A DNA stretch of 64,000 bases from Octopus vulgaris (lineage: Eukaryota). The stretch covers positions 49,724,001 to 49,788,000 of the forward strand of contig OX597818.1 in NCBI GenBank assembly GCA_951406725.2, in the 5' to 3' direction. The notes below the pieces were generated by a model. It saw only the letters and a program-made list of their open reading frames with translations, had not been told where the DNA came from and searched no databases. Positions 863 through 47,007 of this stretch are shown here, piece by piece (the stretch's first letter is position 1; each line of letters begins with the position of its first letter). Both the position numbers and the translations under genes were made by a program.

Positions 863-1232
863 TATATATGTATATACATATAAGAAATTAAATGAAGAAC
901 AAAGGAATAAGAAACTATGCCATGAACTTCATTAGCTCACAGCTGTTTCTGTCATACAATCTAATGCACTCATAGTTGAGTGCTTGTGCATCACCCAGAC
1001 AGTCATTGGAGCTTTGAAAATGAAGTGCTATTTTATTTGAGAAATCATTTACATTTCTATATATATGAAGCTTTAGGGTGGTACACAACCCTATAAGTAC
1101 CTTGCATCTTATAGTAGAAACAGGTGTATGCCAATGAAGTTGATGACAATTTTTTATTCCCTGTCATTTATATAACTTATTACTGCTCTGTACTCAAATG
1201 ATATTATCTTTCTGAAACATAAGCATACTGGT

Positions 1233-1320
1233 GGAGGCACACGGCCTAGTGGTTAGAGTAGCAGACTTGCAGCTGAGGGATCACAGGTTCGAATCTCAGA
1301 CCGGGTGATACGTGTGTTTA
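1233..1320 (+). mobile_element. tRNA-derived SINE head (third family; relatives at about 11345-11425 -, 22500-22640 +, 29915-30140 +, 55216-55530 +)
   Basis: A-box-like cggcctagtgg and B-box ggttcgaatc are present. There is no complete cloverleaf, and dispersed diverged relatives exist. Confidence 0.6.
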
Positions 1321-1359
1321 TGCTCCAAGCATAACGGTCATTTTCATAGCATATTTTGA

Positions 1360-1434
1360 TTGCTTTGATAACTGAAGAGATGCTGGTGCAGATTTCCGCC
1401 CTGACATCTGAAACTCAGAGTTTTATCATGGCAA
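1360..1434 (+). ncRNA. Minimal type I hammerhead ribozyme candidate
   Basis: tgataa CTGAAGA gatg..catc t GAAAC tcaga GTT ttatca. Stem I is 6 bp plus a ttgc/gcaa extension, the core is intact, stem III is actc-a-gagt, and the triplet is GUU. Confidence 0.7.
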
Positions 1435-1627
1435 GCGAATAATTGTCACATATTATATTACAAATATATATATATATATATTTACAAAATAAATATAAGA
1501 TTATAATATATTATAAAATATTATAATAATCCAGGTTTCTCGGAGCACTAGGCCACTTGGTGTAGAATAGATATACTATTAAATTAGTATCTAATTCTCT
1601 CACCCTTATTAATTAATTATATATATA

Positions 1628-1659
<32 letters not shown>

Positions 1660-1858
1660 TTCCCTGTAAATTTGGATTTATTCCCTAATATTTATTATTA
1701 TTATATATATATATATATATGTAATATGTGCACATTATCAACCTCTCATATTGACCATTATTTGTACCATTGCCTTTTCCATACATTACTCTCTTCCACC
1801 ACACTTTTAGCATTCAACACCTTCCAGCATTATCATACACACATAGTATACACAGACA

Positions 1859-1897
<39 letters not shown>

Positions 1898-2478
1898 CTG
1901 GTACAGGCATGGTTGTGTGGTAAGAAGCTCCATACTTAAGCTCCATGCAGCTCTGGCAGAAGGTAACGACAAACTTCTGCTGATTCTTTCGCCACAATTT
2001 TCTCTTAATCTTTCCTCCTGCATCTAGCAGCTCACCTCCGACAGACCCGCGTCCCATCCAGATAGGGAACCTACGCGCCAATGATACCAGGCAACCACAA
2101 CAAACAACATATACACACTGACTTCTAACACCAGGTTATTAGTATCACTATGCTCCCACTGTCCTTTCAAAATCTTGTGAACTTCCCTGCCTTCTCTAGT
2201 CCCCAGTCCACCCCACTGTATATATCTCCCTGTAATTTGGGTGTACCATGTCTGTCCCCTTCCCAATCACATCTTCACCATCTTTCTCTTCCCTCTCTCT
2301 CCCTATCTGAGATAGCCATGTTTCTCTTCTAATGCAAAACACCTTCTCTGTCCCACAATACTACTCCACCCCTAGTTGAGGGCTCTTGTCCTGCAAGTTA
2401 CTTGGTGACCTTACTGTTGCTGGTACCATGTAAAAAGCACCCTGTACAGAAGGTACAATAGTCGGCATTAGGAAGGAC

Positions 2479-2797
2479 TGGCAGAATCGTTAGCACGCCG
2501 GGTGAAATGCGTAGCCGTATTTCGTCTGCCATTACGTTCTGAGTTCAAATTCCACCGAGGTCAACTTTGCCTTTCATCCTTTCGGGGTCGATAAATTAAG
2601 TAGTAAAGAAATAGGTATTTCGTCTGCCGTTACGTTCTGAGTTCAAATTCCGCTGAGGTCGACTTTGCCTTTCATCCTTTCGGGGTTGATAAATTAAGTA
2701 CCAGTTACGCACTGGGGTCGATATAATCGACTTAATTCATTTGTCTGTCCTTGTTTGTCCCCTCTGTGTTTAGCCCCTTGTGGGTAATAAAGAAATA
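2479..2797 (+). mobile_element. tRNA-headed SINE with Meta/Nin-like central domain, inserted into an RTE 3' UTR
   Basis: The gcctttcatcctttcggggtcgataaattaagtacc core is duplicated internally. A 15-bp TSD ggcattaggaaggac lies at 2464-2478 and 2798-2812. Confidence 0.8.
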
Positions 2798-3353
2798 GGC
2801 ATTAGGAAGGACATCAAGCTGTAGAAAGCCACGCTAAAACACAGCAAAGCTAGGTGCAACCTTCTGACTTGCCAGTTGCTGTCAAACTGTCCTATCATGC
2901 CAGCATGGAAAACAGACATTAAATGAGGATGATGATGGTGATGATGATAATACATACATCTACACACACACACACACAACACACACACACACACACACAG
3001 AGTAGTCTATTACATTACATTCATTATTTATTTATTTCTTGATAACACTTTGTTTTCTGAAGTGTTGGACGGTTTTGCTGTGTTGCTGCGCCCTGACCAT
3101 TGACACACTTTCACTCCATCTCAGTAGAATTGTGTCATTGATAGGGGTGTGGTGGAGAGATAAAAGGCTTTTGGTGCTTAATGGTGGACAATGCTACAAG
3201 GAAATGCATGAGAGGTGACAGTAACAGATATTTATGGTCTTAAATGGCAAAAATGACTCATTCAAATTACTCTTCCTTGATGAAATGCTGTCCATATATC
3301 TATATATATATATATATATTATCTATCTATCTATCTATCTATCTGTCTGTCTT

Positions 3354-3391
<38 letters not shown>

Positions 3392-3433
3392 AATCTATCT
3401 TTCTATCTATCTATCTATCCAACTATCTATCTA

Positions 3434-3467
<34 letters not shown>

Positions 3468-3786
3468 GATCTGTCTGCCTGCCTGCCTGTCTGTGTTTGT
3501 GTGAATTTGTGTATCATGACAACAACAGAGGAAAGTGAGTAGTGACTGTCAGTACAAAATTGGTGATATGAAATAGTTAGTTGTAACAGGCAGGTTCTTG
3601 TTTCCTTACTTTCCAGAGCAGAATAATACACTAGATAGGAGAATTATGGAAGGTGTTGAATGGTGGGGTTAAATGCTAAAAGTGTGGTGGGAGAGAGTTA
3701 ATGTATGGAAAAGGCAATGGTACAAATAATGGTCAATATGAGAGGTTGATAATGTGCACATATTACACATATATATATATATATAC

Positions 3787-3838
3787 AATAATAATAATAA
3801 TAATAATAAATAATATAATAATAAGATAAATAATAATA

Positions 3839-3915
<77 letters not shown>

Positions 3916-3941
3916 GTAATAATAATAATAATAATAATAAT

Positions 3942-3995
<54 letters not shown>
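3787..3995. repeat. (AAT)n microsatellite; expanded 3' tail of the adjacent CR1-group LINE fragment
   Basis: About 70 AAT units abut gaaattattgtatac, the 3' end of the element at 3996-4420. Confidence 0.9.
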
Positions 3996-3997
<2 letters not shown>

Positions 3998-4420
3998 AAT
4001 TATTGTATACACCTGTCTGGAAAGCAAACAGTGTATGAGTCAGATACATGCTTGCTTGTGTATGGAGGGGAGAAAATCAGGTGTAGTGTTGGCGAATCTC
4101 AGGAAGCATGGAAGTTTTGAAGGATGCAGTGCTCCGACAACTAACAACTGATGCCGGCAGTTTGTTCCATGCTTCAGCAACTCTCAGCGTGAAAAATTGT
4201 TTTCGAAAGTCATGGGAGCTGTGCTGTTTTCTGACTTTGTAAACATGTCCACAGATGGAGTTTGAAAAGGTGCTCAGAGTTGTTGTTAGTAAGATGGTTA
4301 ATAATTTTATGGGTGTCTACCAAGTCAGCTGCCAGACATCGGAGTTTCAATGGGTCCATGCCCAGGGAAGTAAGGCATTCAGAATATGGCAAATGCCTGA
4401 TGGAGGGTATTCTCTTGGTA
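3996..4420 (-). mobile_element. CR1-group LINE 3' fragment
   Basis: Translation PYSECLTSLGMDPLKLRCLAADLVDTHKIINHL. The same family occurs at 18560-19065, 21355-22300, 34975-35330 and 51080-51495. Confidence 0.75.
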
Positions 4421-4875
4421 TTCTCTCTCTCTCTCTAGTTAATTTAGATAGGATACAAATTATATGAGAATGAGTGCTCAACACTGCATTGGTGGATAAA
4501 GTTTCTTTATTTGTGTATTAAGGCTACCATTGGTTTCATGCTAAGAAAAAGATATCTTAATATCTTAACAATTATTCCTCCATGTGATCGGCTTGGATAA
4601 TTGTTAAGATACTAAGATATTCTTTCATAACCTGAAACCAATGGTAGCCTTAATACACACACACACATACACACACACATCACTATCTTCATCATCGTCA
4701 TCGTTGTATCCACACTTCCATGGTGGCATGGGTCAGAAATATTATTTGAAGCATTTTCTTTTTCTTTTTATGACAAGATGCTTTTCCTAATACCAACCTT
4801 TTTACTTGCCTCTTATGAGGTAAGGACACTGTGTACTCTTCCTAAATCTGGAATGTTATACAACACACACACATG

Positions 4876-4909
<34 letters not shown>

Positions 4910-5299
4910 CACATATATTCCTCTACATACACACACACATATACATAAACATACACTCAAATTAAAATCCATAAATGATAGCATTAAATACCGGAATATT
5001 TATGAATATATCTAAAGTGAATATGAGAAAGTACTGTTATTGCCAAGAACACAAAAGACGTGAGGAATCAGACAGAAAAATATTTTTAATGTCTTCACTG
5101 TGGAAGGAATGACTTAATTTTTCAATTAAAGCTTTGTTTGGCAAAAAAGTGGAAAGGTTGTGTAGCTCTAAACAACAGAGTCTCCATTGTAAAACAACTT
5201 TCGAGCATTCAAGGAAGAAATCGAGGGATAATAGAGGCGGTGTTCTTTGACACTTTTTAAAGAAATAAATGGATCTTAAGAAAACTGGTCCCTTTTACT

Positions 5300-6410
5300 G
5301 GTATGAAAACAGACTCACACACACATACTCACTCACTCACTCATACACATACTCACACATGCATACATACATACAGTCATAAACAGATTCACACACATAT
5401 GCATACACACTCACCCACACAGAATATGCATGTAAATCTACTATTCACAAATAGACATACACACATACATACAAATATGCATACTCACGTATGATATACA
5501 TACACAAATATTCATACATAAATGCATGCTAACAAATGTACACATAAATTAAACCAGTCATATACACTCACAGTCACACAAACTCATATACGTACATACA
5601 TACATACATACGATATATACATACATACACATACATACATACACACACACACATACATACATACATACATACATGCATGCATGCATACATACATACATAC
5701 ATACATACATACATACATGCATGCATGCATACATACATACACACATACACACATACATACATGCATACATACATACATACACACACACACATACACACAC
5801 ACATACATACATACATACATACATACGTACGTACGTACATACATACATACATACTCGCACATATTCACACACATACACCACATTCATGCTCATATATTCA
5901 CATACGTTTGTACACAAATTCACGTGTACGCGCACATACATGCATACATACATACATACATACATACATACATACATACATACATACACACACAATAAGA
6001 CATTCACGTAATTAAATACGTGCACATATGTTCACATACGCTCACACGTTCCCCCCATATCCACACACACACACTCAATTTTCGCACACGTACAACAGAA
6101 CATTTTCACACACACACACACACACACATATACACATATATAACTACGCCCCCATACACGCATATACGTGCATGTACTCAAATTCACAACTCCCTCATAC
6201 ACACATCCACAAGCTATAGACACACCCACACATCATCAAACTCCTATACGCATATTACAAGGCTTCACATTAACCCAAATACACACAGATACATATTCCA
6301 CATGAACAAAAATATTCAAAAGCAGAAAGAAAAAAAAAACCGCGCACACATACACACAAACATATACACATAAACAGTGAACGAAACTCATATATACACA
6401 CACAAAGTGC
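5300..6410. repeat. Compound (TACA)n/(CA)n microsatellite tract
   Basis: Direct inspection; it explains the HTYI/MYVC low-complexity ORFs. Confidence 0.95.
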
Positions 6411-6796
6411 AAAGCCAAGATATTTAATGAAATAGCTCTGAGTCACATTGCTATTTTGCAGCTAATAAAAGAGCCAAAAAGTTTAAAGACTCGCTGACAG
6501 TTTTATAATAAAGAGATCTGCCATAGAAGAAAGACTTGTCGTCTTCAATGGGTGTGTTAAGGGTTTGTTGTTCGTGTTGTGTTTTTGAAGTCTCGTGTAT
6601 GGCTGGTGTTAAGAGGTAGTTCTTTACGGAAAGAGTTGGGGCAAACAAATGAACTTCTTTATCGTATAGCTTTAATGGTTTCAGATGAAATGGAGAACGA
6701 TTTTCTTACACTCAAACTAAGCTGTCAGGAATTTACAAAGTATATATTTTGTTACACGTATGTACATGGGAAATCCCGAGTTGTATAGAAAAAAGA

Positions 6797-6974
6797 TACA
6801 TACATACATACGTACGTACATACATACATACATACATACATACATACATTCATGTATGCATACATACACACACACATACATACATATATACATACATACA
6901 TACAACATGCATGCATGCATACATACATGCATACATACATACATATACACACACACATACATGCATGCATGGAC

Positions 6975-7005
<31 letters not shown>

Positions 7006-7134
7006 CACACACACATACATGCATACATGCATGCATGCATACATACAACATGCATGCATGCATACATACATACATGCATACATACATACATACATACATA
7101 CATACATACATACATACATACATACATACATACA
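6797..7134. repeat. (TACA)n microsatellite
   Basis: Direct inspection. Confidence 0.95.
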
Positions 7135-7398
7135 CCAGTAATAATTGGAGCATTAAGTTTTGTTAGTAAATGCTTAAAGGAAAACCTGGATAAACTGGGA
7201 TTTTCAGAAAGAGAAATCGACCGGCTAATTCGTACATTACAAATGCAATCTGTAAGTGGAACAGTAAAAATATGCAAGACTTTTCTCAAGTTCCAAATGT
7301 GAATTTGTGTCAACTACATCCCAAAAACGGAGCCTTGTATCTTTGTTGGAAACAGGCTTCCTCCTCAGTGGAAAACTTATAATAAGATACATACATAC
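7135..7398 (+). mobile_element. 3' end of an R4/Dong-like (restriction-like endonuclease) non-LTR retrotransposon
   Basis: PVIIGALSFVSKCLKENLDKLGFSEREIDRLIRTLQMQSVSGTVKICKTFLKFQM* (stop 7300-7302) resembles the R4/Dong C-terminus (PxxIGALG..LQ..GT.KI..FL). A short UTR is followed by (TACA)n. Confidence 0.6.
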
Positions 7399-7913
7399 AA
7401 ATATATAGCTATATATATAAAATTATAAATTAGGATATCTGAGAGATACCACCATGCTGAAATAGCAGTCAAAACCTCTGGTGCTATATAAACATTGTAT
7501 GTGGCTTTAGAGTCAGGTTTTGACTGCTATTTCAGCATGGTGGTATCTCTCAGAGACCCTAATTTATAATTTTAAATAATTATTACCTTTGTAGGGTTTT
7601 TATTCCCATGCTGACCACTTGATAAGATCGATATTTAAATATCGATCTTATCCTTATTTATAAATAGCTATATATATATATATATATATATACACCGTTT
7701 TGAAGTGCTAAGTTGAAAGAATTGCCCTCCAGTATTTATTTCTTGGGATCCATTTCTTGTACCTACTCTATCGGTTTCCTTAGCTGAACCGCTAAGTTAT
7801 TGGAACGTAAGCGTAAACAAGCAAACACCGGTTATAATATGAATGAATTTGTATGTGAACGTGTATGTGTGTGTCTGTGTGTACATACATGGATATATAG
7901 ATATACTGATATA

Positions 7914-8100
7914 CCAGTGGTAGAGTAATATGCTTTATTTTAAGCAGCAGAAAATTCAACAAAATCTGTTACTCTGAGTTTCTCGTTGCCGTTCATCAGA
8001 CAGTTTTTGCTAGTTTTTTCTAGCAAAAACTGTCTGATGAACGGCAACGAGAAACTCAGAGTAACAGATTTTGTTGAATTTTCTGCTGCTTAAAATAAAG
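7914..8100. mobile_element. Palindromic Penelope-terminus-like insertion carrying a hammerhead motif on each strand
   Basis: Perfect 81-bp inverted arms at 7933-8013 and 8020-8100 with a T6 spacer. A 14-bp TSD gatatactgatata lies at 7900-7913 and 8101-8114. ctgt CTGATGA acggcaacga GAAAC tcaga GTA acag lies at 8030-8067. Confidence 0.75.
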
Positions 8101-8257
8101 GATATACTGATATATACAGACAGCTATACAAAATATAGATTCATTTATCATCATCACCATTGACATAGTTTTACGTCCGTTTTCCATTGTTGCCATGGGA
8201 TAGACGAGTTGCCAGGATCTAAGGCAATCCATATAGGAAATTACCGCTCTTCACACA

Positions 8258-8490
8258 CATGTATGTATGTATGTATGTATGTATGTATGTATGTGTGTGT
8301 ATGTATGTATGTATGTATGTATGTATGTATGTATGTGTGTATGTATGTGTGTATGTATGTATGAATGTATGTATGTATGTTTGTATGTATGTATGTATGT
8401 ATGTATGTGTGTATGTATGTATGAATGTATGTATGTATGTACGTACGTATGTATGTATGTTCAGAGATATTGAGATACTTGGTAAGAAAT

Positions 8491-8569
<79 letters not shown>

Positions 8570-8583
8570 AACACACACACAAA

Positions 8584-8650
<67 letters not shown>

Positions 8651-8692
8651 ACACAAACACACACACACACACACAAACACACACAAACACAA

Positions 8693-8723
<31 letters not shown>

Positions 8724-8763
8724 AACACACACACACAAACACACACAAACACACACACACACA
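8258..8763. repeat. (TATG)n followed by (CA)n microsatellites
   Basis: Direct inspection. Confidence 0.95.
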
Positions 8764-9183
8764 CCACAGAAGGCGGGTGTGAATGAAAGTGTCCGCTTGT
8801 GTAACTGTGACTGTATTCACGAGTAGTGCGTGAGCGTGGGAGTGAGTAAAGTATAAAGTGGTGATGAAGAGAGAGAGGGAGTGTGTGTGTAAAAGACAGA
8901 AAAAGAAATGGAGATAGGAGGAGGAAGGGGAGGAGAGAGAGAGAGAGAGCAAAGCGATAGAGACAGAACAAGTGAATAAAAAACAGTGAAAGAATAATAA
9001 AGAAGAGAAGAGAGAGTGAGAGCGGTATAAAAAATGGAGGAGAGAAAGGGGAAAGGGGAAGGTATAAAAACAGAGTGAAAGAGAGAGAGTATGAAGCTGA
9101 GAGTTCGTGCGTGCTTCTGATAAAAACAAGAAGAAAAAGACAGAGTGAATGATAAGAGAGAGAAGAGAGAAAAAGGGTAACAA

Positions 9184-9216
<33 letters not shown>

Positions 9217-9769: not shown

Positions 9770-11195
9770 AGCTTAGTAGATAAAGCAATTAAGGATGTGA
9801 AGACAGGGAAAGCCTCTGGCCCATCAGGTGTCACTCCAGTGCCTATTAACCCTTTCGTTACTGTATTTATTTTGAGATGCTCTGTTTCTTTCAATTACTT
9901 GAAATATAACAAAGAATTTAGTAAAATAACTTCGTTATCATTCAGTTAGTGTTAGGAACATAAATTGTGACTAAGGTTTGCTGGAAGATTTTAATTCAAA
10001 CTTATGAAAACAAGACATTTGTTCTACAGAGCCAGAGCCGTTTTCAGCCGGGTTGGTAACGAAAGGGTTAAAATGCCTGGCAGTGTGGGATATGACCTGG
10101 TCACCCATACAGTTAATCAGGTTGTCTACGAGGAAGTCATACCCAGTGATTGGTGTAGCAGCATTATAGTCGAGTGCTACAAAGGCAAAGGTGATGCCCT
10201 AGGCAGAAAAAATTACAGGGCATCAAATTGCTGGACCAGGTGATGAAAATTACAGAAAGGGTCGTAGCTTAATTAATTAGGAAGAGAGTTAGTGTAGATG
10301 AGATGCTGTTTGGATTTGTACTGAGAAGAACTACTGATACTATTTGCCTGGTGAAATACTTGGCCAAAAATGAACCTCTATATTTGGCTTTTGTTGACAT
10401 GGAGAAAGCCTTTGGCAAGATCCCCTGCTCCCTTATCTGGTGAGCAATGTGAAAGTTAGGGATAAATGAATGGTTTGTGAGAGCTGTACAAGCCATGTAC
10501 AGGGATGCTGTTAGTGAGGTGAGAATTTTTAATGAGTATAGGAAGGAGTTTAGTGTACAAGCAGGAGTCCACCAGGGTTCAGTTCTTAACCCCCTCTTAT
10601 TTATCAAATTCCTCCTAACTATAACTGAGGAATTTAAAACTGGCTGCCCTTGAGAGCTCCTCTATGCCAATGACTTTGTTCTTATTGCTGAATCACTACC
10701 AGAACTAAAGAAGAAATTTCAGGTATGGAAGCATGGACTGGAATCAAAGTATTGAAAAGTAGGGGAACAGACAAATCCCAGATTCCTTCAGGAAGATGGC
10801 CCCGCTTGATATGTAGAAAAGGTGTTGGGAGAAACTCCATAAGATGTACCCAGTGCAAGCTATGGACACATAAGAGGTACAGTAGTATCACTGGAAAACT
10901 AACAGAAAAAGTAGTCTTTATATGTGGCAGATGTGCAGGTTCATTAAACACCAGGAATGTACAAAATATAAACTCTCTCATTTGTCAAGAGGGATCTTTA
11001 GAAGTAGTAGACAGTTTCCATTATCTTGGTGACCAATTTAGTAGTCTGGGAGGTTGTTCCGAAAGCATAGCTATTAGAATAAGAATAGGCTGGGCTAAGT
11101 TCAGAGAGCTACTACCTCTGTTAGTAACAAAGGGTCTCTTCCTCAGAGTGAAAGGCAGACTGAATGATACTGTGTATAAACAGCTATGGTACATG
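9770..11195 (+). mobile_element. Degraded RTE-clade LINE reverse transcriptase fragment
   Basis: Frameshifted pieces include KTGKASGPSG, IPSDWCSSIIVECYKGKGDAL..NYR, AFVDMEKAF, GVHQGSVL, LYANDFVL, C-x2-C SIRCTQCKLWTHKR and FHYLGD..RIRIGWAKFRELLPLL. Confidence 0.85.
9850..10067. mobile_element. piggyBac-type MITE nested in the RTE fragment
   Basis: TTAA on both flanks (9846-9849, 10068-10071) and TIR ccctttcgttac/gtaacgaaaggg. A second copy lies at 56116-56337. Confidence 0.85.
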
Positions 11196-11432
11196 GTAAT
11201 GACATGCATACTGGCCTCCTCTCTCCACACCACCAGTGTTATCCAAGGGAATGGTAAAGGCTGACACAGCTTGGCACCAGTGATGTCACAACTCATTTCT
11301 ACAGCTGAGTTAAGGTGGAGCAACGTGAAATAAAATGTCTTGCTCAAGAACACAACACGCAGCCCGGTCCGGGATTCGAACTCACAACTTCACGATTGTA
11401 ATCTCGACACTCTAACCACTGAGCCATATGCA

Positions 11433-12435: not shown

Positions 12436-14552
12436 GATTGATTGATTGATTCTAGTTTCAGCTTATGAGCTGTGGCCATGCTGGGGCACCGCCATTTGGT
12501 GTTGCTACTTGGTTTCACTTCATGAAGGCTTTCTAGCAACTGCTATTTGGTGCATGAGAGAGTTCGATGCAGCTGCCCTCATCTGCCCCTCCTGCCGTAA
12601 AGTTGGTTCATCTGGGACACCTGACAGGAAGAGATCCAGCTTCATTTTAAAGACATCTGTATCCACCCCATGCAGGTCTCTCAGGTTCTTCGGGAGGATA
12701 TTGAAGAGCTGTGGGCCTCGGAAGCCCAGGCTATCACAGAATCTTGTCCTACATCTTGATGGCAAGTTTGGAGTCCTAGGCACCACGCAGTGGCGCCCAG
12801 TTCTGGCATTTGCGTAACTCTCGATGCCAAAGTTCAGGACACTTCCCTCCAGGATCTTCCAGATGTATATTATGGCATATCTTTCCCGCCTACGCTCCAA
12901 GGAATATAATTTTAATCTCTTGAGTCTTTCCCAGTAGCTTACATTCTGCATAGAGGCTATCTTCTTCGTGTAGCTACGTTGGATCGCCTCGAGCTCTGTG
13001 ATCGACTTGACACTGGATGGTGACCATAACTGAGAGCAGTAGTCAAAGTGGCTTAGGACAAGTATCCTCCAGAGGACCATCATGGTTTCTTGTTCTCTTG
13101 TTCTAAAGGTTCTGAGGATCCATCCGGCCAGTCGTCTACATTTCATTGCCAATTTAGCAACATGTACACGAAAGGTCGCGTCATCACTCATGTAAATACC
13201 TAGGTCACGCACTGATTGTGCCTCTGGGATTGCTATTCCTCCGGGTCCAGTGTATTCATTGGTATTGCATTTAGTTTTGCATGCTGATAGTATAGAGCTT
13301 GAAACTTTTCAGCATTGAACTGCATGCTATTCTTTTTCGGCCCACTTGTATATTTTGTCTAGCTCACATTGCAGGTGTTTAGTGTCCTCAGGGTTCTGTA
13401 TTGCCTGTGAAACTTTTGTATCATCTGCATAACTTGTGATCGTGGCTCTCTGCGTGGCTGAGGGCATGTCTGAGAGGGCCATTATGAACAGTAGTGGTCC
13501 CAGAACAGTGCCCTGCGGAACACCGCTCACTATTTGCGTGTTAATGGAAGTGGCCCCATTGGCCACTACCACCTGACTTCTATCTTTCAGAAAGTCATGA
13601 AGCCATTCTCCCAGTTTTCCAACTATGTTGAGATCACGCAGTTTGTGACATATCATTCCATGATCGACTTTATCAAAGGCCTTTGCAAAGTCGAGATATA
13701 TCACTTCCACATTTGAGTGGTTGAGCAGCCGTTTCAGCACCCAGTCATAGTGTTGTAGGAGCTGAGTTAAACAGCTTCTCCCTGGTCGGAAACCATGTTG
13801 GGTGTCGGGCAGCAAGTCATTTTCTTCAAGGAAGGTGATCAGCTTCCTTCTGACTATTCGTTCCATGACCTTGCTGATGTGTGAGGTCAGAGAGATAGGT
13901 CTATAGTTCTTGGCTTCCGCTCTGCTACCTCCTTTATGAATGGGGCATATTTTACCTTCCTTCAGTTTTCTTGGAAGTTTGCCAGCTGCAAGGAAGCTCT
14001 GAAAGAGGAACTGCAGTGGTCTTGCTAGGACTCTCTTACATGCTTTTAGGAGGATTGCCGGGAATCCATCGGGGCCAGTAGCTGAGTCTGTTTTCATTTC
14101 ATCTATAGCCTTGATTACATCGTCTTCCTTTATATCGATGTAATCTATCGTCACCGCCTCTGATTTTATATCTGCAGTGGTAAAAAAGTCAGTTGGATTG
14201 GTGATTTGGAGATGCCCAAGGGGTGGAGTGAAAACACTCTTGAATTGCTCATTCAGTATTTCACTTACCCTCATTGGTTTTCCTGTAAGTGTGCCATCCT
14301 TTTCGAGGAGTGGCCCTATTCTACAGTGCACCGTAGCTGTTTCTTTGGCATACCTGTAGAAAGCTCTGGGGTTAGATTTTATGTTGTCTATAGCCCAGGC
14401 TTCTTTGTCTGCTCTTTCCTTTTCATGGGAGAGTTGCAGACATTTTTCGATTTCCAACAGTTTTATTTTTAGGCGGGACTTTTCACTGCTTTCAATCTGT
14501 TTGTTTAGGCGATTTGAAAATTTTGTACGCCGTCTCATTAGAATTTTCCTCT
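12436..14552 (-). mobile_element. 5'-truncated, relatively young CR1-group LINE (RT domain and C-terminus) with (ATCA)n tail
   Basis: ORFs 13327-14679 and 12520-13212 contain NYRPISLTS, QHGFRPGRSC, YLDFAKAFDKVDH, GVPQGTVLGPLLF, YADD, RDLGI and LERRRERY. Frameshifts occur near 13260-13335, and the tail gattgattgatt is at 12436. Confidence 0.9.
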
Positions 14553-14566
14553 CTCTATACTTATAT

Positions 14567-14628
<62 letters not shown>

Positions 14629-15155
14629 GTATATATATATGTATATAATTATCGCCATCAAATGAAGCATGTGCTTCACTCAGTTCTTAGTGTTTCTTGT
14701 TGCAGTCTTTCAAATGACAATAGATTTGAATGACAAAATTGTTGATGCTGGAAGTTAATCAATTGTGTAATTTACATTGATCACACCACACTGTGTGGTA
14801 TTTCCCATTGTGTTTACGGAAGTAGTTTCTGTGAGATAAGCGCATTAACATTGTTTAGGGAAGGAAATATTTATTTCTGCCACTTCACTGAGTAATTCAA
14901 TGCAATTAAACAACATGATTCATCCCAACTGAATTTTGAAAGTTTTAAAAGAAATTTATTTCTTTACTCTTTTACTTGTTTCAGTCATTTGACTGTGGCC
15001 ATGCTGGAGCACTGCCTTTAGTCGAGCAAATCGACCCCAGGACTTATTCTTTGTAAGCCTAGAACTTATTCTAAGTTACGGGGATATAAACACACCAGCA
15101 TCGGTTGTCAAGCGATGTTGGGGGGACAAACACAGACACACAAACATATACACAC

Positions 15156-15228
<73 letters not shown>

Positions 15229-15308
15229 AGCTGGTTCATCTGAAGCGACAAGTACGCCGATGGGTAAAGTTCCTTCTTTTTAGTGTTTCCAAATCCAAAT
15301 TAAGAAAT

Positions 15309-15371
15309 TTTGAGCTGACGATAGAAATGCTGATTTTATTTGGCTAATCTTGAAACGTTGACGTACTCAAA
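15309..15371 (+). ncRNA. Minimal type I hammerhead ribozyme candidate within a (TA)n-flanked insert (15227-15649)
   Basis: tttgag CTGACGA [30-nt stem II] GAA ACGT tg ACGT A ctcaaa. Stem I is a perfect 6 bp, the core is intact and the triplet is GUA. Confidence 0.7.
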
Positions 15372-16119
15372 CGATCTATGTACTTGTGATATTTTTCTGT
15401 ATTTACCTCCAAACCTTCGTGAGCTGTCTGGAGTAAACATTATCTGAGAGAAATTTTCTTTAAGTAGTAGAAACGGCTAAAAAACTTTTTTGGCTGCTAT
15501 TTCTACCAAGTTCAGTATGTGGCAAAGTAATTTATTTTACTAAGCCCTAATTATATAATGTAATATTTTGAATTCGCCTTAAATGGTCCTTTTACATACT
15601 GAACACTTGGTGAAATTGATTGATTAATTAATTTTACCCTCAATTGTTGATATATATATATATATATAACTGGTACTTAATTTATCAACCATGAAAGCAT
15701 GAAAGGCAAAGTCGACTTCGGCAGAATTTGAACTCAGAACATAAAGACAGATGAAATACTGCTAAGCATTTCCCCCGACATGCTAACGTTTGTCAGCTCA
15801 CTGCCTTTTGAAGCATTTATATTAATTGTGACTTTGTTTATGGCTCAAATAATCTTTCCCAGAAGCTTGTTTCACACCATTAAAAAAGAATCCATAAAAA
15901 GTACCTGTGTCGGGTTTCAATTAGGAAGAGAATTGTACACAAATGAGTTGCTTTTCTCAATCCTTCACTGTTCAACTTGTGACAATTGAAATCTGCTTTA
16001 AATGTGTGTAGACTAATGATGAACTGACATGGAATGTCATGACTGTTATTTGACTGAAATCAGTATAGCAAAGGTAGGTTTAGTCTGTGAAATACTATTA
16101 TGAAATATTTGGTGAAGCA

Positions 16120-17805: not shown

Positions 17806-18559
17806 AATGCACACACACAGTGTTTGAAGTGGTGTACAGATATTGTATATTGAGAAAAAGGAGGCATTCAAAATTTTGGATCAATTTTGATTTTGTCTTG
17901 ACGAGTTCGTAAACGAACGAAAACGCTAATAAATGATTATCCAAAATTCTGACTACCTCCCTTTTTCTCAATACACACACCCTCCCATACACACACACAC
18001 ACATGTACGTACGTACGTATGTATATACGATATACGCATACGTATATATTTGTGTATATGTGTAGAGTGTTAGGTGTGATGTACAGATTTGAATATTGAG
18101 AAAAAGTCGTCAGAATTTTGGAAAGAACTTATTTTATTATTACATCTTCATTTGTGTCTATGTATATACGTTTTAATAAGTAAAGTTGTTGCCGATGTCT
18201 GTCTATTTAAATATCTTGATGTTGACTATTTTATTCCATCTTGTATATTGTTAGTTCAATCTATTGTGTTTTACGTTGGGTTTTTTTAATACCCTGCATT
18301 GACACAGTATTGAACACAAGATGGACAATTGTTCCTATTGCGACATCCATTCTTTCACAATTTAAATTTAAGAGTAAAAAAAAAGAATGAAAAAAAAGCG
18401 GATGTCGAGAACCACTTTCCAGCAGACGAGATCTTGTCTCACACAAATTTGAAACCATGTACTGACGAAGTTTCTGAAATTCCAAATAGGAGAATGATTT
18501 AATCCTTTGAATTTGTAAAATTAAGGATTATTTTTCTGAGCACTAACATGTTCTAGGCG

Positions 18560-23691: not shown

Positions 23692-25385
23692 GGTCCAGCC
23701 TTCTTAGGTCCAACCTTTCTCTCAAGGCACTAACACTCTGTCGAGTATACACACTGACATTACACATCCATCGGAGCATGCTGGCTTCATTCCTTGCGAG
23801 CTTACGCATGTCCTCAGCAGTCATGGCTGTTCATACAGTCTACCTTTTACTCTGAGCAAGAGGCCCTTTGTCACCAGCAGAGGTAAGAGCTCTCTGAACT
23901 TAGCCCAGGCTATTCTTATTCTAGCAGCTACACTTTCAGTGCACCCTCCCCTGCTACTGACTTGGTCACCTAGTTAACGGAAGCTATCAACTATTTCTAG
24001 TTTTTCTCCCTGGAATGTGGTGGAAGTTGTTCTCTGCACATTTTCAGTGTTTATTGCTCCTGAGCATTTGCCACATACAAAAACTATATTCCTAGTTAGC
24101 CTTCGTTTGATATTGCTGCACCTCTTATGTGTCCATAGATTACACTTGGTACATCTTATAGAGTTTCTACCTACGCCTTTTCTACAGATCGAGCAGGGTC
24201 ATCTACCTGAAGGGATTTGTGGTTTGCCTGCCTTCTTACTTATTAGAACTTTGATTTTAGCTAGGTTGACTCTAAGGCCCTTCAATTCTAATCCTTGTTT
24301 CCATACTTGAAACTTCTCCTCTAGTTCTGATAGTGACTCAGCAATTAGAGCAAGGTCATCAGCATAGAAGAGCTCCCAGGGGCATCCTGTCTTGAATTCC
24401 TCTGTTATTGCCTGGAGGACTATGATAAATAGGAAGGGGCTGAGGACTGAACCTTGGTGGACTCCTACCTCTACCCTGAATTCTTCACTGTACTCGGCCA
24501 ACCCTCACCTTACTGACAGCGTCCCTGTACATGGCTTGCACAGCTCTCACTAACCATTCGTCTATCCCTAGTTACCTCATTGACCACCAGATAAGGGATC
24601 GGGGGACCCTGTCAAAGGCTTTCTCCATGTCAACGAAAGCCAGGTACAGAGGTTTATCTTTGGCTAGGTATTTCTCCTGCAGCTGTCTTACCAGAAATAT
24701 AGCATCGGTGGTGCTTTTCCCTGGCACGAAGCCAAACTGCATCTCATCTAAACTGACTCTCTCCATGATCGTCATTACCTGATCCAACAGCTTGATACAT
24801 CTGTAATTATTTGTATCTAAAGCGTCACCTTTACCTTTGTAGCAGTTGACTATTATGCTGCTACACCAGTCATTGGGTATGACTCCTTCGTGTATCACCT
24901 GGTTAACTATACGGGTGACCAGGCTATAGCTGACACTGCCAGATATTTTGAGCATCTCTGCAGTAATTCCTGATGGGCCAGGGGGCTTTCCCTGTCTTCG
25001 TACTTTTAATTGCTTTATCTACCAAGGTACTGTCAACTCGGGTAGCTGGTCCTTCTGTTGGGTTGACATTCGGCAGACTCTCTTTCTCCCATTCATTTTT
25101 TTTATTTAGCAACCGTTCATAGTGGTGTCTCCAAACCTCTCTTTGCAGCCCCATTTAGTGCAAGAGAGTCATCATCCATGCGAACACATTTCTCTCCCAC
25201 AACATCACGATTCTCTCTCACACACTGTCTTGCAACACGAAATACCTCAAGTCTTTGGTCCTCATGGCACAGTACATTGGCAAATTTTTTCTTATCTGCT
25301 TACTCTCTGGCTAAATAAACCTGTCGCTTAGCTTCTCTTCTGGCAGTCCGATGCAATTCCCTGCTACCACCGTTCTTCCAAGCCT
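23692..25385 (-). mobile_element. Degraded RTE-clade LINE RT fragment
   Basis: QFGFVPGKSTTDAIF, AFVDMEKAFDRVPR, GVHQGSVLSPFLF, FYADDLAL and ARNEASMLRWMC, with frameshifts. Confidence 0.9.
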
Positions 25386-36700: not shown

Positions 36701-36737
<37 letters not shown>

Positions 36738-37342
36738 TTCATTTTGGGATTTGGTTTGCAAGATTCTTTATGTGAGTTCATGTGTTGAAGAATATTCTTC
36801 TGTGTCTGGGGAGAGTCATTCTCTTTTGGTGCCTTATAATTTAACACACTCACCAGTAAAATTACCACTTATTTCTTATTTTTATTTTCCTAAAATTTTC
36901 GTTGCGTCTTGCAACCTTTTCAATAGTCTTGACTCTGTCCATTATTTACACTGCTTTCCTTTTTCTTTGTTTGTTTGAAAATTTTAGGAAAATAAAAATA
37001 AAAAATAAGTGGAAATTTTACCGGTGAGTGTTTTAAATAATAAGGCACAAAAAGAACATGACTCTCCCCAGACACAACAGTATATATATATATATATAAA
37101 CTGAAAGGAGCCTGTTGTATATATACAACAGGCTTCTTTCAGTTTCCATCTACCAAATCCACTCACAAAGCTTTGGTCATCCCAAGGCTATAGTAGAAGT
37201 CACTTGCCCAAGGGTGCCATGCAGTGGGACTGAACCGCAAGCCATGTGGCTGGGAAGCAAGCTTCTTTATCTCTTTTAGATTGCCATAAAGACATTGCAC
37301 AGAGAGGGACACTACAACACATGTGGGGACATATAACATGCA

Positions 37343-37377
<35 letters not shown>

Positions 37378-38227
37378 TTTTATATATGAACCTATATTGT
37401 GTCAGATGACATTTCAAGGTGTTCAGATATAAAGTGTGATAAAAATTTCAGTAGTTCAAATTTTGACTTTATTTATTTGTTTTGTGAATGATTTTTATCA
37501 ATTTTTTCATTGGGGACCAGATGGAATTTTCTGAGGGAGATTTTCAACATCTGGATATCCTTCTTGTCACCAACTCTCACTTGTTTCCAAAGCAAGTTAA
37601 TATTTCCCCTTTGATTGAATCAGCATCTAAAATGCATTGAGAAAGAAAAACAAAAAACAAAAAAACTACTTTCATCTCTAGTGTAAAAGAAAGCTTATTT
37701 GTTAATCTGTATAATTAGCGGTCCAGTTATCATCATCATCATTGTTGTCATCTGACGTCCGTTTTCCATACTGGCATGGGCTGGATGGTTTGACTGAAGT
37801 CTGCAGAACCAGCAGCTGCACCAGGCTCCAATCTAATCTGGCAAAGTTTCTACAGCTGGATGCCCTTACTAACGCCAACCACTCCAAGAGTGTAGTGGAT
37901 GCTTTTTACGTGCCACCAGCATGGGGGCCAGTCAGGCGGTACTGGCAACGACCTCGCTCAAATCTTTTTACACATGCCACCAGCACAGGTGCCAGTAAGG
38001 CGACGTTGATAACGATAGGCAACGTTGGTAACATTGTGTAATAATGTTAGCATATCTTTTCTTCTACAACCACTCTGAGAGTGTAGTGAGTGCTTTTTAT
38101 GTGCCACTGGCACAGGAGCCAGTCAGGCGGGCCTGGCATCAATCACGTTCCGATAGTGCTTTTTACATGTCACTGGCACGGGAGCCAGTCAGTGGCTATA
38201 AGCAATAAATATAATACAAATTACCTC

Positions 38228-40291: not shown

Positions 40292-40363
<72 letters not shown>

Positions 40364-40610
40364 GTTTAAATATTTGTTGTGCAAGATTTTTTATGTGAAG
40401 TCGTGTGTTGAAACAGATATTGTTTAGTAAGGAGAGACACAAATATGAAAGAAGAAAACAAAGGACACACAGGAGTGTGACGAAAGAACTCTGGCCGAAA
40501 TAAGATTAAGATTAATGTAAAAAATAAATAACACTGAAGCAAAATAACACCAAATATATAGTGCGTGTGTTTTTATTGGCTAAACTGGCAATATGACCAT
40601 TCCGAAATAT

Positions 40611-40659
<49 letters not shown>

Positions 40660-41699: not shown

Positions 41700-42022
41700 T
41701 GGGGTGGGTTCCAAAAACGTAGCAAATGTTTTTCCATATATGGACATGACCCAAAAATTTCAGTTCTTCAATTTAGACATGTAGCAGGGTCTTAAGAACT
41801 TTTTCAGATGAGCCATCTTTCCATATCACAAAGACTGCACTTTCCACTGCTGTTGGTGTAAAGCTTACACTTGGCCAAGATCTTCCAGTGAATCTTCTAG
41901 CTGGCACCTTTTTCTTTTAAGGACCATATATGACTGGAAAATTTGATTGTTTTCCGTGATTGTTGAACCTGGCTTTAAAATTTCCCTCTGTGAGACCTAT
42001 ATATTTCTTTGGTGGGTGCAAT
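41700..42022 (-). pseudogene. Degraded Penelope-like GIY-YIG endonuclease fragment
   Basis: Minus-strand translation gives KKYIGLTEGNFKARFNNH..SHIWSLKEK..IHWKILAKCKLYTNSSGKCSLCDMER..CLN*RTEIFGSCPYMEKHLL, with stops and frameshifts. Confidence 0.7.
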
Positions 42023-42970: not shown

Positions 42971-43027
<57 letters not shown>

Positions 43028-43687
43028 TTCATATATATATATTATAAAGAGGAGGAGGGGTGGGGTCAGAGGGAGAGAGAGCCAGAGTCAGACGTAGGTG
43101 GAGAGAGAGATAAAAATGTAGTTAAATGGTGATTAAGTAGTGGCAGATGGTATCATTCCTAAATGTTATCTAATTCGAAATTTTGCTTATCCCTGCCCCT
43201 CAAACATGCTTTGAATCACCTCAGTACCTCAATATCATTAGCTATGAGTCAGACACAATCACTACACATATCAAGAAAAATACTCTTATACTTTTCCTCC
43301 TCTAGATATATCATGTGATTAGAACCTTCAAGGTCATTAGAAGAGCAGACAGCAAGATAAATCTTTTGAGGAAGAATTTTCATCAAGCACTTTGGTCTTT
43401 TAGGTCCAGACCGTCTAAGGGAACTGAGCCCTTTGAGATCATGACTCCTATTTGTCTTTGAAATATCACCTTTAGTGAGCATTGAACTCAGATGTCTTGC
43501 AAACAACTTGCACATGTAAGTGCTACCAGTCAAAAACTCCACATACCGGAAGCCAGCAAGTGTATGGGGTAATCAGGAGAGAATGCGCGCCGTTTCAGGG
43601 CCTACCTCTTGACGGCATCAATGCGCACCGGCCCCCCTCACTGATATGAAGCCCCACTTGCTAGATCAGCTGGTTATCAAATAAAGC

Positions 43688-43768
43688 TCAATATTCTTCT
43701 AGCCATCGCTCATCGTATCTTTTTAACCAAATCCAGTGGCTAGCCTTCTCCAGTGTAGTTTGGATATC
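43688..43768 (-). pseudogene. Possible C-terminal relic of an R2/Hero-type (RLE) retrotransposon
   Basis: DIQTTLEKASHWIWLKRYDERWLEEY* resembles the EKASxWxWLKR terminal motif I recall from Hero-type elements. The match is short. Confidence 0.45.
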
Positions 43769-44150
43769 TTAGGATTTATTTTATTTCTCTTAACTGTGGT
43801 GTATACCGGTGGCCACCACAAGAAATTGCACTGTGGGTATATTTCAAATTGGGGAACATATTTAACATAGTAAAGACTGTATTACAAAGGTTGGCCTTTC
43901 CATTCAGGGTTAGAAAGTACTTCAAACCCCAACAGCTACTAACCCACATCATAGCTCAGTTGTGACTCACAATGAAATATTGTTCCCACATCTGCAACAG
44001 ATGTGTTTGGTTAAGAAGTTTACTTTCCAATTGCATGGTTTTGGTTTCAGTCCTCCTGTGTGACACTTTCGATAATTGTCTTTAACTACAGCCTTGGACC
44101 AAATCAAGCCTTGTGAGTAGATTTTGTAGATGGAAAGTAAAAAAAAATTC

Positions 44151-44192
<42 letters not shown>

Positions 44193-44306
44193 CTCTGAAC
44201 CAGGTATAAACAGTAGCTGCATGACAATGTGAAGTATGTTTGCCACTTAAATGTGGTTAACCACTAAGGGTGGATGCTACTGTAGCTTGTAGCCCCAGGA
44301 GATAGG

Positions 44307-45626
44307 CTGGATAATTACTCCAACGAACTCCCACACCGCATCAAAAAGGAATTTATTTTAGAAGGACTCAAATTCATCTTAGAGAATAATTTCTTCACCT
44401 TCAACAACAAATTCTACAGACAGAAATCAGGGACGGCAATGGGAACGAAAACAGCTCCCACTTACGCCAACCTAGTCATGGGATACCTGGAAATCACCTA
44501 TAATAACGTTCTTAACCAATTTGGCACCACTCTCCACACACACATAGAGAAGAACTGGAAGAGATATCTTGATGACTGCTTCATCCTTTGGCCCGAAACC
44601 ATCGAGAAGCTTAAAGAATTTCACACCCTTATAAATGGGCTCAACACAAACATTATTTTCACAATAGAATACAGCCCTCAACAAATTCCCTTCCTCGACA
44701 TCCTCATTAAAATTCACAACAAAAAAATAGAAACAGACATATACTACAAGCCCACAGACTCCAAGCAATACCTCCCTTTCAATTCATGCCACCCTAGACA
44801 CGTTAAAATTAACATTCCCTACAACTTAGCCAAGAGAATTTGCACTATAGTCTCCAATAAAAACACCCGTCTCTTACATCTACAAGAACTTAAGGACACA
44901 TTAACAAGCAGGGATTACCCCACGTCACTAATTGACAATGGGATCCAACGTGCCCTAAAACTCAGCACACAGGAACTTAGACGCCCTAAACCTGTTACAT
45001 CGAAACCCCATACTCTATCATACATCTCTACACACAACCCCCTCAACAATGAAGCTTTTGACACCATCCTCCAGAACATTCCTGTATTAAAAAAGGACCA
45101 TAGAATGAACCAAATCCTCCTAACACACGAAATCATAAAGAGCAAAAGGCAACCCAAATCATTGAAAACCATCCTAACAAATGCCAAAGTACTGCCAACC
45201 ACAACAACTAAACCCACAGTAAACAAATGCAATAGACCCAACTGTGGTATATGCATCAACCTAATAGAAGGTCCGGAATTCCTTTTTAAACAAGGACAAC
45301 GTTTCACAGTAAAACACAACTTCACATGCGCATCAGAAAACCTAGTATATGTCTTAACTTGCTCGGGCTGTAATGAACACTACATAGGCCAAACTAAAAA
45401 TAGCCTTCGCCAACGCATGACTGTCCACAGATCCCAAATAAAAATACAGGAATACAGAAAAATAGCACTTAGTGCACATATTGATACCTGTGCCGCACAA
45501 CTTCATCCCAATTTTAGAATCTTTCCCCTCTACAAATTTAAAGACAATGCCACTCATACCCAGCGAATAACCATGGAATCTCACCTTAATAATAAATACA
45601 GACCACTTCTAAACACATCCCCCTAA
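44307..45626 (+). CDS. Penelope-like element RT (3' part) + Cys linker + GIY-YIG endonuclease, 5'-truncated open frame
   Basis: The frame is open from 44307: NNFFTFNNKFYRQKSGTAMG, WKRYLDD, IPFLDI, YYKPTD..YLPFNSCHP, KCNRPNCGIC, NFTCASENLVYVLTC..HYIGQT..RMTVH. Confidence 0.92.
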   Translation: MDNYSNELPHRIKKEFILEGLKFILENNFFTFNNKFYRQKSGTAMGTKTAPTYANLVMGYLEITYNNVLNQFGTTLHTHIEKNWKRYLDDCFILWPETIEKLKEFHTLINGLNTNIIFTIEYSPQQIPFLDILIKIHNKKIETDIYYKPTDSKQYLPFNSCHPRHVKINIPYNLAKRICTIVSNKNTRLLHLQELKDTLTSRDYPTSLIDNGIQRALKLSTQELRRPKPVTSKPHTLSYISTHNPLNNEAFDTILQNIPVLKKDHRMNQILLTHEIIKSKRQPKSLKTILTNAKVLPTTTTKPTVNKCNRPNCGICINLIEGPEFLFKQGQRFTVKHNFTCASENLVYVLTCSGCNEHYIGQTKNSLRQRMTVHRSQIKIQEYRKIALSAHIDTCAAQLHPNFRIFPLYKFKDNATHTQRITMESHLNNKYRPLLNTSP

Positions 45627-46615
45627 CACGAACCCACAACAAACACACTTACACCTGCACACACGCTACACACACTTTTACCCAGATATTAACACCATGA
45701 CACACGCAAATATATGGTTCCACACATACACATAATTTGATACGGGTGCAAAACATCCAACACTATTTTTGGGAAATGACTGTAAATATTAACTTCACAC
45801 AAACACGTTGCTTCCCGATACAGGCACAAGGCCAGCAGAACTATAAATATTGAAAATTGTACCCACACACACACACACATATACACACACGCGCGCCCCA
45901 ACATACATATAAACACACACACACATACATACATATAGCTCTTCCTGTCCTAAATGAACTTACTTATCCAGCTCAAATTCAGTCAAGCGGAAAATACACT
46001 CCTTAACTACTCACTAAAAAGCTATTTAAAATATCCACATGACATCTACTGACAAGCCTGAACAATAAGAATTTTCAACAATGCTATTTTCGAAAACTCC
46101 ATACTCCACCCACACCAACATTCATTCTAAACATTCACATGACCTCTCTATTATGACCACATCCATGTGACCTCTTTATTATGACCAATAAGAAATTTTA
46201 GGCGCGACACTAGCCAAATTTTAACATCTCTGGAGCCTATTTTCTTACCCCAACACCAACTTCCATTCAAACATTCATGTGACCCCTTTATAATGACCAA
46301 TCAAAATTGTATTGACCATTGTCCACAAGAAATTTTAGGCACGAAACCAAGCAAATCTTAAATAACTCTGGAGCCTCTTTTTTCACATATAAGAGACAGC
46401 AAACCCAACATAAATTCAGATAAGAGAAAAAAATCTATCAGAAAGGAACTCTATCTCTCTTAAAAAATATCTTTTGATAAGCATAACAAATGCGCAACCG
46501 GTAAAAACTTTCACCTAATTAAATACACTCTGCCTTACTTAAATTATTTTGTCAGCATTTTCTTCATTTCATTTTTTTATATATCACAACTCGTGTTCCA
46601 CATCTCCTTTTTTAA
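45627..46615 (+). mobile_element. 3' UTR / pseudo-LTR of the Penelope-like element
   Basis: Follows the stop codon. It contains ~130-bp imperfect direct repeats (about 46110-46380) and a hammerhead-like motif at 46471-46507, and ends in (TA)n. Confidence 0.6.
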
Positions 46616-46767
46616 ATATATATATATATATATATAACGGGAAGCTTTATGAAAATAGACAAAAGACGAAGGCAGGTTTACAGAAAATAAACAAAAGACG
46701 AAGGCAGGTGGAATACAAACAAACAATTGTATTAGTATGGCGCTCAGGAAATATAAATAAAACAAGT

Positions 46768-46803
46768 CTTTAACGTTTCGAGCCTACGCTCTTCAACAGA
46801 AAG
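46768..46803 (-). ncRNA. Minimal hammerhead-like motif, A6U variant
   Basis: Minus strand reads cttt CTGTTGA a gagc gtag gctc GAAAC GTT aaag. Confidence 0.55.
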
Positions 46804-46861
46804 ATACACAGAGAAAAAAACACAGAAAGAAGGAGAGAAAAAAAATTTTTGCGTGCAGAAG

Positions 46862-46920
<59 letters not shown>

Positions 46921-46971
46921 AGATCATTAGCCACTACACACATTTTTTCTCTCCTTGTTTTTACTGTGTCC

Positions 46972-47007
46972 CTTTCTGTAGAAGAGCATAGGCTCGAAAC
47001 GTAAAAG
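46972..47007 (+). ncRNA. Minimal hammerhead-like motif, A6U variant
   Basis: cttt CTGTAGA a gagc atag gctc GAAAC GTA aaag. Confidence 0.55.

Follow-up and report, generated by a model that had tools for sequence, protein, structure and literature searches.

Minimal hammerhead motifs in Octopus vulgaris as probable relics of Penelope-like element termini

The stretch studied here spans 64,000 nucleotides of the Octopus vulgaris genome (assembly GCA_951406725.2, contig OX597818.1, positions 49,724,001–49,788,000; hereafter the window) and contains a series of hammerhead ribozyme motifs, ten of which were put forward in an original prediction made from the letters of the sequence. These motifs are minimal type I hammerhead motifs in what are probably the 5'-truncated, often inverted 3' ends (pseudo-long terminal repeats or pLTRs) of several families of Penelope-like elements (PLEs), and most copies are probably inert. 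Overall, what the window presents is real and likely consists of ordinary, decayed end-fragments of Penelope elements, neither an active ribozyme layer nor a set of tandem retrozymes. The window itself is animal DNA of 38% GC with no long host open reading frame (ORF), and it is rich in microsatellites, repeats resembling short interspersed nuclear elements (SINEs) and fragments of long interspersed nuclear elements (LINEs).

Anatomy and enrichment of the hammerhead motifs

The layout of a minimal hammerhead, that is GAAA, a short self-complementary stem III, U-N and a closing stem I, is recognisable at all ten coordinates of the original prediction. An intact CUGANGA/GAAA/UH core, however, is found at only three of them: 1360, 8030 (with its mirror at 7966) and 15309. 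The remaining seven are off-consensus. An eleventh motif which had been missed, 36890–36926 on the reverse strand, has the core with a U3-A8 pair. The topology is type I with a closing stem I of 3–6 bp at nine of the ten sites, while 46471 has only 2 bp. Stem III had been described as mostly very short and self-complementary, and it is indeed palindromic at seven sites, with no more than a single unpaired base in the centre; the exceptions are 15309, which has two central bases, and the imperfect stems of 17892 and 18420. An extra base after A9 occurs together with a G10.1-C11.1 pair at 46768, 46972 and 36890, the pair is present without the extra base at 1360, 17892 and 46471, and the extra base stands alone at 8030 and 15309. 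An extra U between stem II and G12 is common to 1360, 15309 and the relic at 4590.

The strict descriptor (CUGANGA/GAAA/UH) identifies four motifs, at 1366–1428, 7966–8003 (reverse strand), 8030–8067 and 15309–15371, and a looser version admits the U3-A8 pair. As a control, 60 local, block-wise dinucleotide shuffles of the window were used. With zero core mismatches and U3-A8 admitted, there are four matches against a shuffle mean of 0.07 when stem I has at least 4 and stem II at least 2 pairs, and six against 0.48 when stem I has at least 3. No shuffle equalled the observed count at either setting, so that the excess over dinucleotide-shuffled sequence, on which the original prediction had made its case depend, is borne out.

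A relaxed, scored scan, controlled with 30 shuffles, returned 930 candidates in the window. Here, 1360, 15309, 8030, 46768, 17892 and 46972 rank 1, 2, 4, 8, 9 and 11, and 11 candidates reach a score of at least 7 compared to 2.8 per shuffle. Sites 4590 and 934 rank 57 and 90, the scan did not recover 18420 and 46471 in the parse originally given, and at scores of 4 or less the observed and shuffled counts overlap. These enrichment figures flatter the motif set somewhat, because the scoring was devised once the sites were known. The enrichment over shuffled sequence is real and uneven across the sites: 934, 4590, 18420 and 46471 are in the chance range by structure alone, and the other six stand above the shuffles. 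Two further candidates were set aside. The first, 37517–37554 on the reverse strand, has a high score, a 7-bp stem I, a U3-A8 core and GAAA but lacks stem II, and is probably a chance match or else a further relic; the other, 18092–18138, overlaps a repeat terminus. The features of the window that bear on the motifs are as follows.

882–1058, reverse strand: short insert with the decayed hammerhead relic 934–1013, which has two changes in the 5' core, G17 and a long stem II; insert bounded on either side by short TA-rich runs
1360–1434, forward strand: minimal type I motif with an intact core, a 6-bp stem I, a 4-bp stem II, the extra U before G12 and U17
4512–4659, both strands: head-to-head palindromic insert with site 4590–4649; GAAA, palindromic stem III and UA in both arms, 5' core strand missing or garbled
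7914–8100, both strands: near-perfect head-to-head palindrome with two identical intact-core motifs, 7966–8003 (reverse) and 8030–8067 (forward); left arm longer
15228–15649, forward strand: insert between (TA)24 and (TA)9 with the intact-core motif 15309–15371; 6-bp stem I, weak stem II
17823–17975, forward strand: insert between (CA)n runs with motif 17892–17933; stem II of 5 bp, a single base inserted in the core and a single broken pair in stem III
18420–18464, forward strand: weak, decayed hammerhead-like relic with U4A and an imperfect palindrome; not above chance
36737–37080, both strands: head-to-head insert between (TA)n tracts with the U3-A8 motif 36890–36926 (reverse); 5-bp stem II, left arm longer, right arm begins at GAAA
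44307–45626, forward strand: 5'-truncated Penelope-like ORF with a partial reverse transcriptase (RT), a CX4CxxC linker and a GIY-YIG domain with CCHH (Neptune/Nematis type)
45627–46615, forward strand: likely 3' untranslated region or pLTR of the element that carries the ORF, ending at (TA)10; motif 46470–46507 has U3-A8, A13C, a 4-bp stem II, an ACCGGT palindrome and a weak stem I
46636–46862, reverse strand: copy of a family with U at core position 6 (U6 family), between (TA)10 and (TA)27; motif 46767–46804 with A6U
46917–47097, forward strand: second U6-family copy, between (TA)27 and (TA)9; motif 46972–47007 with A6U

The insert that carries the 1360 motif adjoins (TA)9 at 1464 with its 3' end. 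Directly upstream, at 1230–1330, there is what by eye looks like a tRNA-like SINE head, which could supply an RNA polymerase III promoter or could be mere adjacency. The insert with the 17892 motif has an inverted copy of its 3' end on the left and another near 18080–18125.

The Penelope-like reading frame and two core-variant families

By its domain layout, the ORF at 44307–45626 is a Penelope RT–GIY-YIG of the Neptune/Nematis type. It matches PF01541 (E 2.8e-5) and PF00078 (E 9.6e-4, below the cut-off), its linker motif lies at residue 308, and a CX2-5CxxC linker together with CCHH is present in 116 of 120 homologues. Identity to the six full-length homologues tested is 43–60%, aligned from the RT region on, and among named proteins its best relative comes from Argonauta hians (58% identity). 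In the best homologue the alignment starts at about residue 319 of 753, the first 318 or so residues being missing. No upstream PLE match was found elsewhere in the window, and the copy is not a full-length ORF with an upstream pLTR. This copy cannot mobilise anything itself because it is 5'-truncated, and it is tied to a single motif, 46471; the role of mobiliser that had been suggested for it is therefore lost. The PLE unit lies between (TA)17 and (TA)10, and motif 46471 follows the ORF by about 850 nt, in repeated sequence and before the (TA)n boundary.

A few observations on this unit stand apart. The 117 nt between (TA)17 and the truncated ORF start (44190–44306) have no self-BLAST match elsewhere in the window and are possibly the inverted end of another element. 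No hammerhead can be recognised in two 135-nt direct repeats, 73% identical, at 46109–46381 in the PLE 3' region, where some contigs leave out 60–68 nt. Among the homologues are Penelope RT–GIY-YIG proteins filed under bacterial symbionts of bivalves (P0033, P0071, P0088, P0110 and P0115), which are likely host contamination of those assemblies. A search for PLE relatives with flanks gave one weak, unrelated locus from 59 candidate stretches in genome contigs and none from 68 in viral contigs.

Family-level evidence came from public contigs of four of the 24 listed runs, which were aligned to 45500–46860 only, at 80% likeness and with differences reported from 20%. The alignment omits two repeats, and divergent contigs may fail to align, making reference bias possible. 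Outside the two omitted repeats the region is multi-copy throughout. In run X1 the summed contig depth is 3,000–41,000 at the ORF end and 200,000–335,000 at 46420–46511, where run X4 gives 146,000–257,000. Depth thus climbs toward the 3' end, overlapping contigs join 45943 to 46492, and opposite-strand joints are present in other copies. For the ORF-linked motif, no substitution reaches 20% within 46462–46504 in any run, and U3-A8 and C13 are consequently the norm of this family. Its stem I is weak even with a common 3-nt insertion after 46505 (24–90%).

In the U6 family, the motif at 46767–46804 (reverse strand) shows internal differences only at position 17 (A in 68–90%), where A yields the usual GUA site, and at N7 (C 7–24%, A 17–47%). 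As position 6 is not among the listed differences, U6 is the family norm, and as variation falls on N7, the free position, the hammerhead register of the family is confirmed. The chance of two variable sites landing on N7 and 17 of 36 positions is about 0.002, or 0.02 with the loop counted as free, a post hoc calculation in both cases. The motif does not really differ from its flanks in the number of variable sites (3 in 38 bases versus 9 in 141), and the information lies solely in the positions that vary. CpG decay as the source of the N7 variation is ruled out, with A7 frequent and G8 invariant. The summed depth of 2.3–4.1 million, together with about 30–75 for several longer individual contigs, suggests tens of thousands of copies, although the summed depth is inflated by overlapping contigs and is no copy number.

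A search with the U6-core pattern gave one match in metagenome contigs and none in viral contigs. The match, at 1490–1545 on the reverse strand of an animal-like contig (L002), is a single-copy U6-core minimal hammerhead with good stems and C17, and the contig has otherwise no similarity to the window and no PLE match. It was not counted as support for the variant, since an ordinary family with a private mutation may account for it.

Insert geometry and origin

The motifs occupy short inserts, either solo or head-to-head. Self-BLAST identified head-to-head arms at 4512–4659, 7928–8105, 17823–17975, 36792–37085 and 46676–47091, and the claim that inserts are palindromic is upheld in these five cases. 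The mirror copies are on opposite strands. The last case is the U6-family pair 46636–46862 and 46917–47097, in which 138 of 153 aligned columns are identical. One arm outruns the other at 7914–8100 and 36737–37080, and a 14-nt direct repeat flanks the 7914–8100 insert (7900–7913 and 8101–8114). A further head-to-head palindromic insert at 7414–7578 is followed by a longer arm that ends at (TA)12 (7669); its geometry is Penelope-like and it has kept no hammerhead.

The association with (TA)n tracts, which was proposed for the inserts, is partial. A (TA)≥5 tract lies within 150 nt of five of the ten sites compared to 17% of random positions (binomial p 0.016, a value that does not come from independent sites, as three of the five form one cluster). 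The others lie at (CA)n, a direct repeat or TA-rich runs, or have no tract: 4590 adjoins (CA)n, 17892 sits between (CA)n runs and 18420 has no tract within 1.1 kb.

When whole inserts are folded, 33–52 motif bases are predicted to pair with the mirror arm and none internally in three of the five palindromes. In read-through RNA of mirrored inserts, the motif is predicted to be hidden within a long hairpin. Dimer folding is predicted to be favourable by 2–16 kcal/mol, although some of the dimer folds are not the hammerhead fold. Nine tandem arrays with a period of at least 25 occur in the window, and the motifs fail the retrozyme definition because none of the eleven lies in such an array.

The anatomy of these motifs agrees with published PLE hammerheads. 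Cervera and de la Pena (2014; PMC4209133) describe minimal hammerhead ribozymes in the pLTRs of PLEs; a genome contains many families of them, most copies stand alone, and opposite-strand pairs and U3-A8 occur. Their consensus includes the extra base after A9, G10.1-C11.1, a palindromic 15.2-16.2, common U17 and a U3-A8 variant. The present set resembles these ribozymes (PMC4209133; Lunse, Weinberg and Breaker as cited in PMC6765202) in type I topology, tiny palindromic stem III and, at part of the sites, the extra base and the G10.1-C11.1 pair, and likewise in tolerated U17, U3-A8, many unrelated families, mostly solo copies of truncated PLEs and opposite-strand pairs 100–700 bp apart. It is unlike them in that U6 is the norm of an abundant family and C13 that of the ORF-linked family, while all 56 representatives in Figure S3 of PMC4209133 carry A6 and GAAA, both of which were demanded by the descriptor used there. 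In addition, the local density of five intact-core motifs in 64 kb is higher than the approximately 4,000–9,000 per genome of that paper would give, if the window is typical.

The inserts also behave like known PLE copies. According to Craig et al. (2021; PMC8557442), PLEs are strongly 5'-truncated and accompanied by an inverted truncated copy, with a tail at one end only, and Neptune and Naiad show a microsatellite bias, which in Neptune is attributed to the CX2-5CxxC linker. The element here shares with the endonuclease-bearing Neptune/Nematis PLEs of that study the RT, the linker, the C-terminal GIY-YIG with CCHH, 5' truncation, inverted copies, one-sided tails and the microsatellite bias. 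It differs in that the copy is truncated and its hammerhead is off-consensus at the family level, and its placement is by layout and not by tree. Anatomy and insert geometry together sustain the original attribution to Penelope-type minimal type I hammerheads in pLTR-like termini that are often inverted and biased to microsatellites. For the nine sites without a link to the ORF, it is insert geometry that points to a PLE origin.

A scheme can be proposed by which such inserts would arise, in which the insertion mechanism and the inactivity of the copies here are both presumptive. A GIY-YIG endonuclease with a zinc finger-like linker would nick AT-rich or microsatellite DNA, and reverse transcription would set out from close to the 3' end of the element's RNA and in most cases halt early, limiting the copy to the end with the hammerhead. 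Often, another truncated copy would be joined to it in inverted, head-to-head orientation, leaving extra sequence on a single arm. In the parent element, cleavage by the hammerhead would require dimerisation through its palindromic stem III and would be weak, perhaps aided by protein. In solo fragments it would decay, and in palindromic inserts it would be paired away by the mirror arm.

Several points weigh against this origin. Half of the sites lack a nearby (TA)n tract, and in two of the five palindromes (17823 and 36737) the folded motif retains part of its own pairing. Only at 46471 is one of the ten motifs physically tied to a PLE ORF, and even there the link over the skipped repeat 45855–45942 is bridged by no listed contig; a full-length parent was seen in the 64-kb window for none of the other families. 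Hundreds of U6-family contigs match the motif alone and diverge on both sides, with 339 and 200 loose ends flanking it in run X1 and 376 and 276 in run X4. Together with U6-family variation of at least 20% that is confined, inside the motif, to N7 and position 17, this suggests that the motif is under selection in parent elements and argues against purely neutral decay.

Alternative explanations and the core variants

The contig evidence for the U6 family also bears on an alternative, that at least this family (46636–46862 and 46917–47097) is a dedicated non-autonomous parasite of Penelope RT, resembling a retrozyme or SINE, which has master copies of its own and whose variant ribozyme is functional. 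We regard this as possible though unlikely. Its summed depth is 2.3–4.1 million as against 20,000–41,000 at the PLE ORF end, the motif is common to contigs with unlike flanks, and depth falls sharply beyond 46834, which means that most copies are short. Animal retrozymes, moreover, reportedly derive from PLE pLTRs and leave dispersed monomers. Yet the window contains no tandem units, some contigs share further upstream sequence (loose ends behind 46846) as truncation predicts, and an A6C hammerhead of a phage is reported to cleave at less than 0.1 per minute, consistent with earlier mutations of position 6. Several unrelated families are indeed present, as originally claimed, but their status as dedicated non-autonomous elements is not supported: 5'-truncated copies of longer elements fit at least as well, with depth rising toward the 3' end and some contigs extending upstream.

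Chance arrangement in AT-rich, repetitive DNA is a highly improbable account of the motifs, and for the top six it is already refuted. It draws on the four of ten that score inside the shuffled background and on an Rfam scan of the window, in which 105 matches at E ≤ 1 included no hammerhead family and were mostly microRNA and small nucleolar RNA models on microsatellites and palindromes. It is opposed by strict counts above all 60 shuffles, by N7 as the variable core position of the U6 family and by the PLE geometry of the inserts. Hardly more probable is an active layer of self-cleaving RNA with relevance for the host, by which read-through transcripts would be trimmed or destabilised; the original prediction had expected an unusually dense self-cleaving RNA layer. 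Cores are intact at three sites, runs guessed to be RNA contain these sequences, and 1360 and 8030, two same-strand motifs with 6.6 kb between them and an identical stem III palindrome, could in principle heterodimerise. Against it stand the seven off-consensus cores, the lack of a tandem array, the mirror arms that are predicted to sequester the motif and the published record, in which minimal hammerhead monomers are weak or inactive and no RNA-seq ends are reported at the Anolis site. For Schistosoma (S. mansoni), monomer cleavage was undetectable and dimers were weak (PMC4209133), and the Anolis PLE hammerhead is protein-assisted and dispensable for insertion in vitro (Frangieh et al. 2024). 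The layer is not supported.

Decayed PLE ends remain the preferred reading, and the element class and its high copy numbers are already in print (PMC4209133, PMC7229834). The original prediction was right about the class and claimed too much for intactness, (TA)n targeting, the part played by the truncated ORF and activity. Cervera and de la Pena (2020; PMC7229834) report over 6,000 motifs for a coral and as many as 120,000 retrozyme copies for axolotl, and Li, Clavereau and Pollet (2026; bioRxiv 10.64898/2026.07.22.740005) describe retrozymes derived from pLTRs. The present inserts resemble these animal non-LTR retrozymes in being non-coding, PLE-related carriers of a type I hammerhead that leave dispersed monomers, a kind that can reach more than 100,000 copies, as in axolotl. 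They are unlike them in arrangement: retrozymes are head-to-tail tandem units of 150–450 bp that give circular RNAs. An O. vulgaris repeat annotation gives 31 recently active Penelope-like families without a mention of ribozymes in the text consulted, and literature searches on octopus and cephalopods showed no study of Penelope-type minimal hammerheads. The finding adds an octopod cephalopod lineage to the animals that are littered with them.

The useful part of the result is the two family-level core variants, U6 and U3-A8 with C13. Tentatively, the lineage may have exchanged the "invariant" A6 for U across several very abundant Penelope-derived families, the U6 variant being under selection and cleaving as a dimer or with an element protein, while a second family spread with a likely dead core (U3-A8, C13); the odds are against this. 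A natural A6C hammerhead is described from phage Bcep176, with low activity favoured by Mn2+ (Perreault et al. 2011, PMC3088659; PMC7151607). It has in common with the U6 family a natural substitution at core position 6, but it is a single phage motif, whereas the A6U change has become fixed across an animal repeat family of high copy number. Literature searches by title or abstract showed no report of an A6U hammerhead; Lunse et al. may already list U6 and C13 variants, and PMC12602865 contained nothing relevant. Should U6 cleave, a class that probably numbers tens of thousands of copies is escaping ribozyme descriptors. Should neither variant do so, families have been amplified with dead ribozymes, which bears on the role of the hammerhead in Penelope elements. 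Were U6 active and U3-A8/C13 dead, the two families would provide a natural experiment on the importance of cleavage for Penelope mobility.

Elsewhere in the window, a CR1/L2-like RT fragment at 12520–14679 (reverse strand) is broken by a frameshift and ends at (TA)25, and RTE-like fragments lie at approximately 10070–11260 and 23830–25020. A 66-bp unit is repeated in 8.7 tandem copies at 48472–49047, within a SINE-like repeat.

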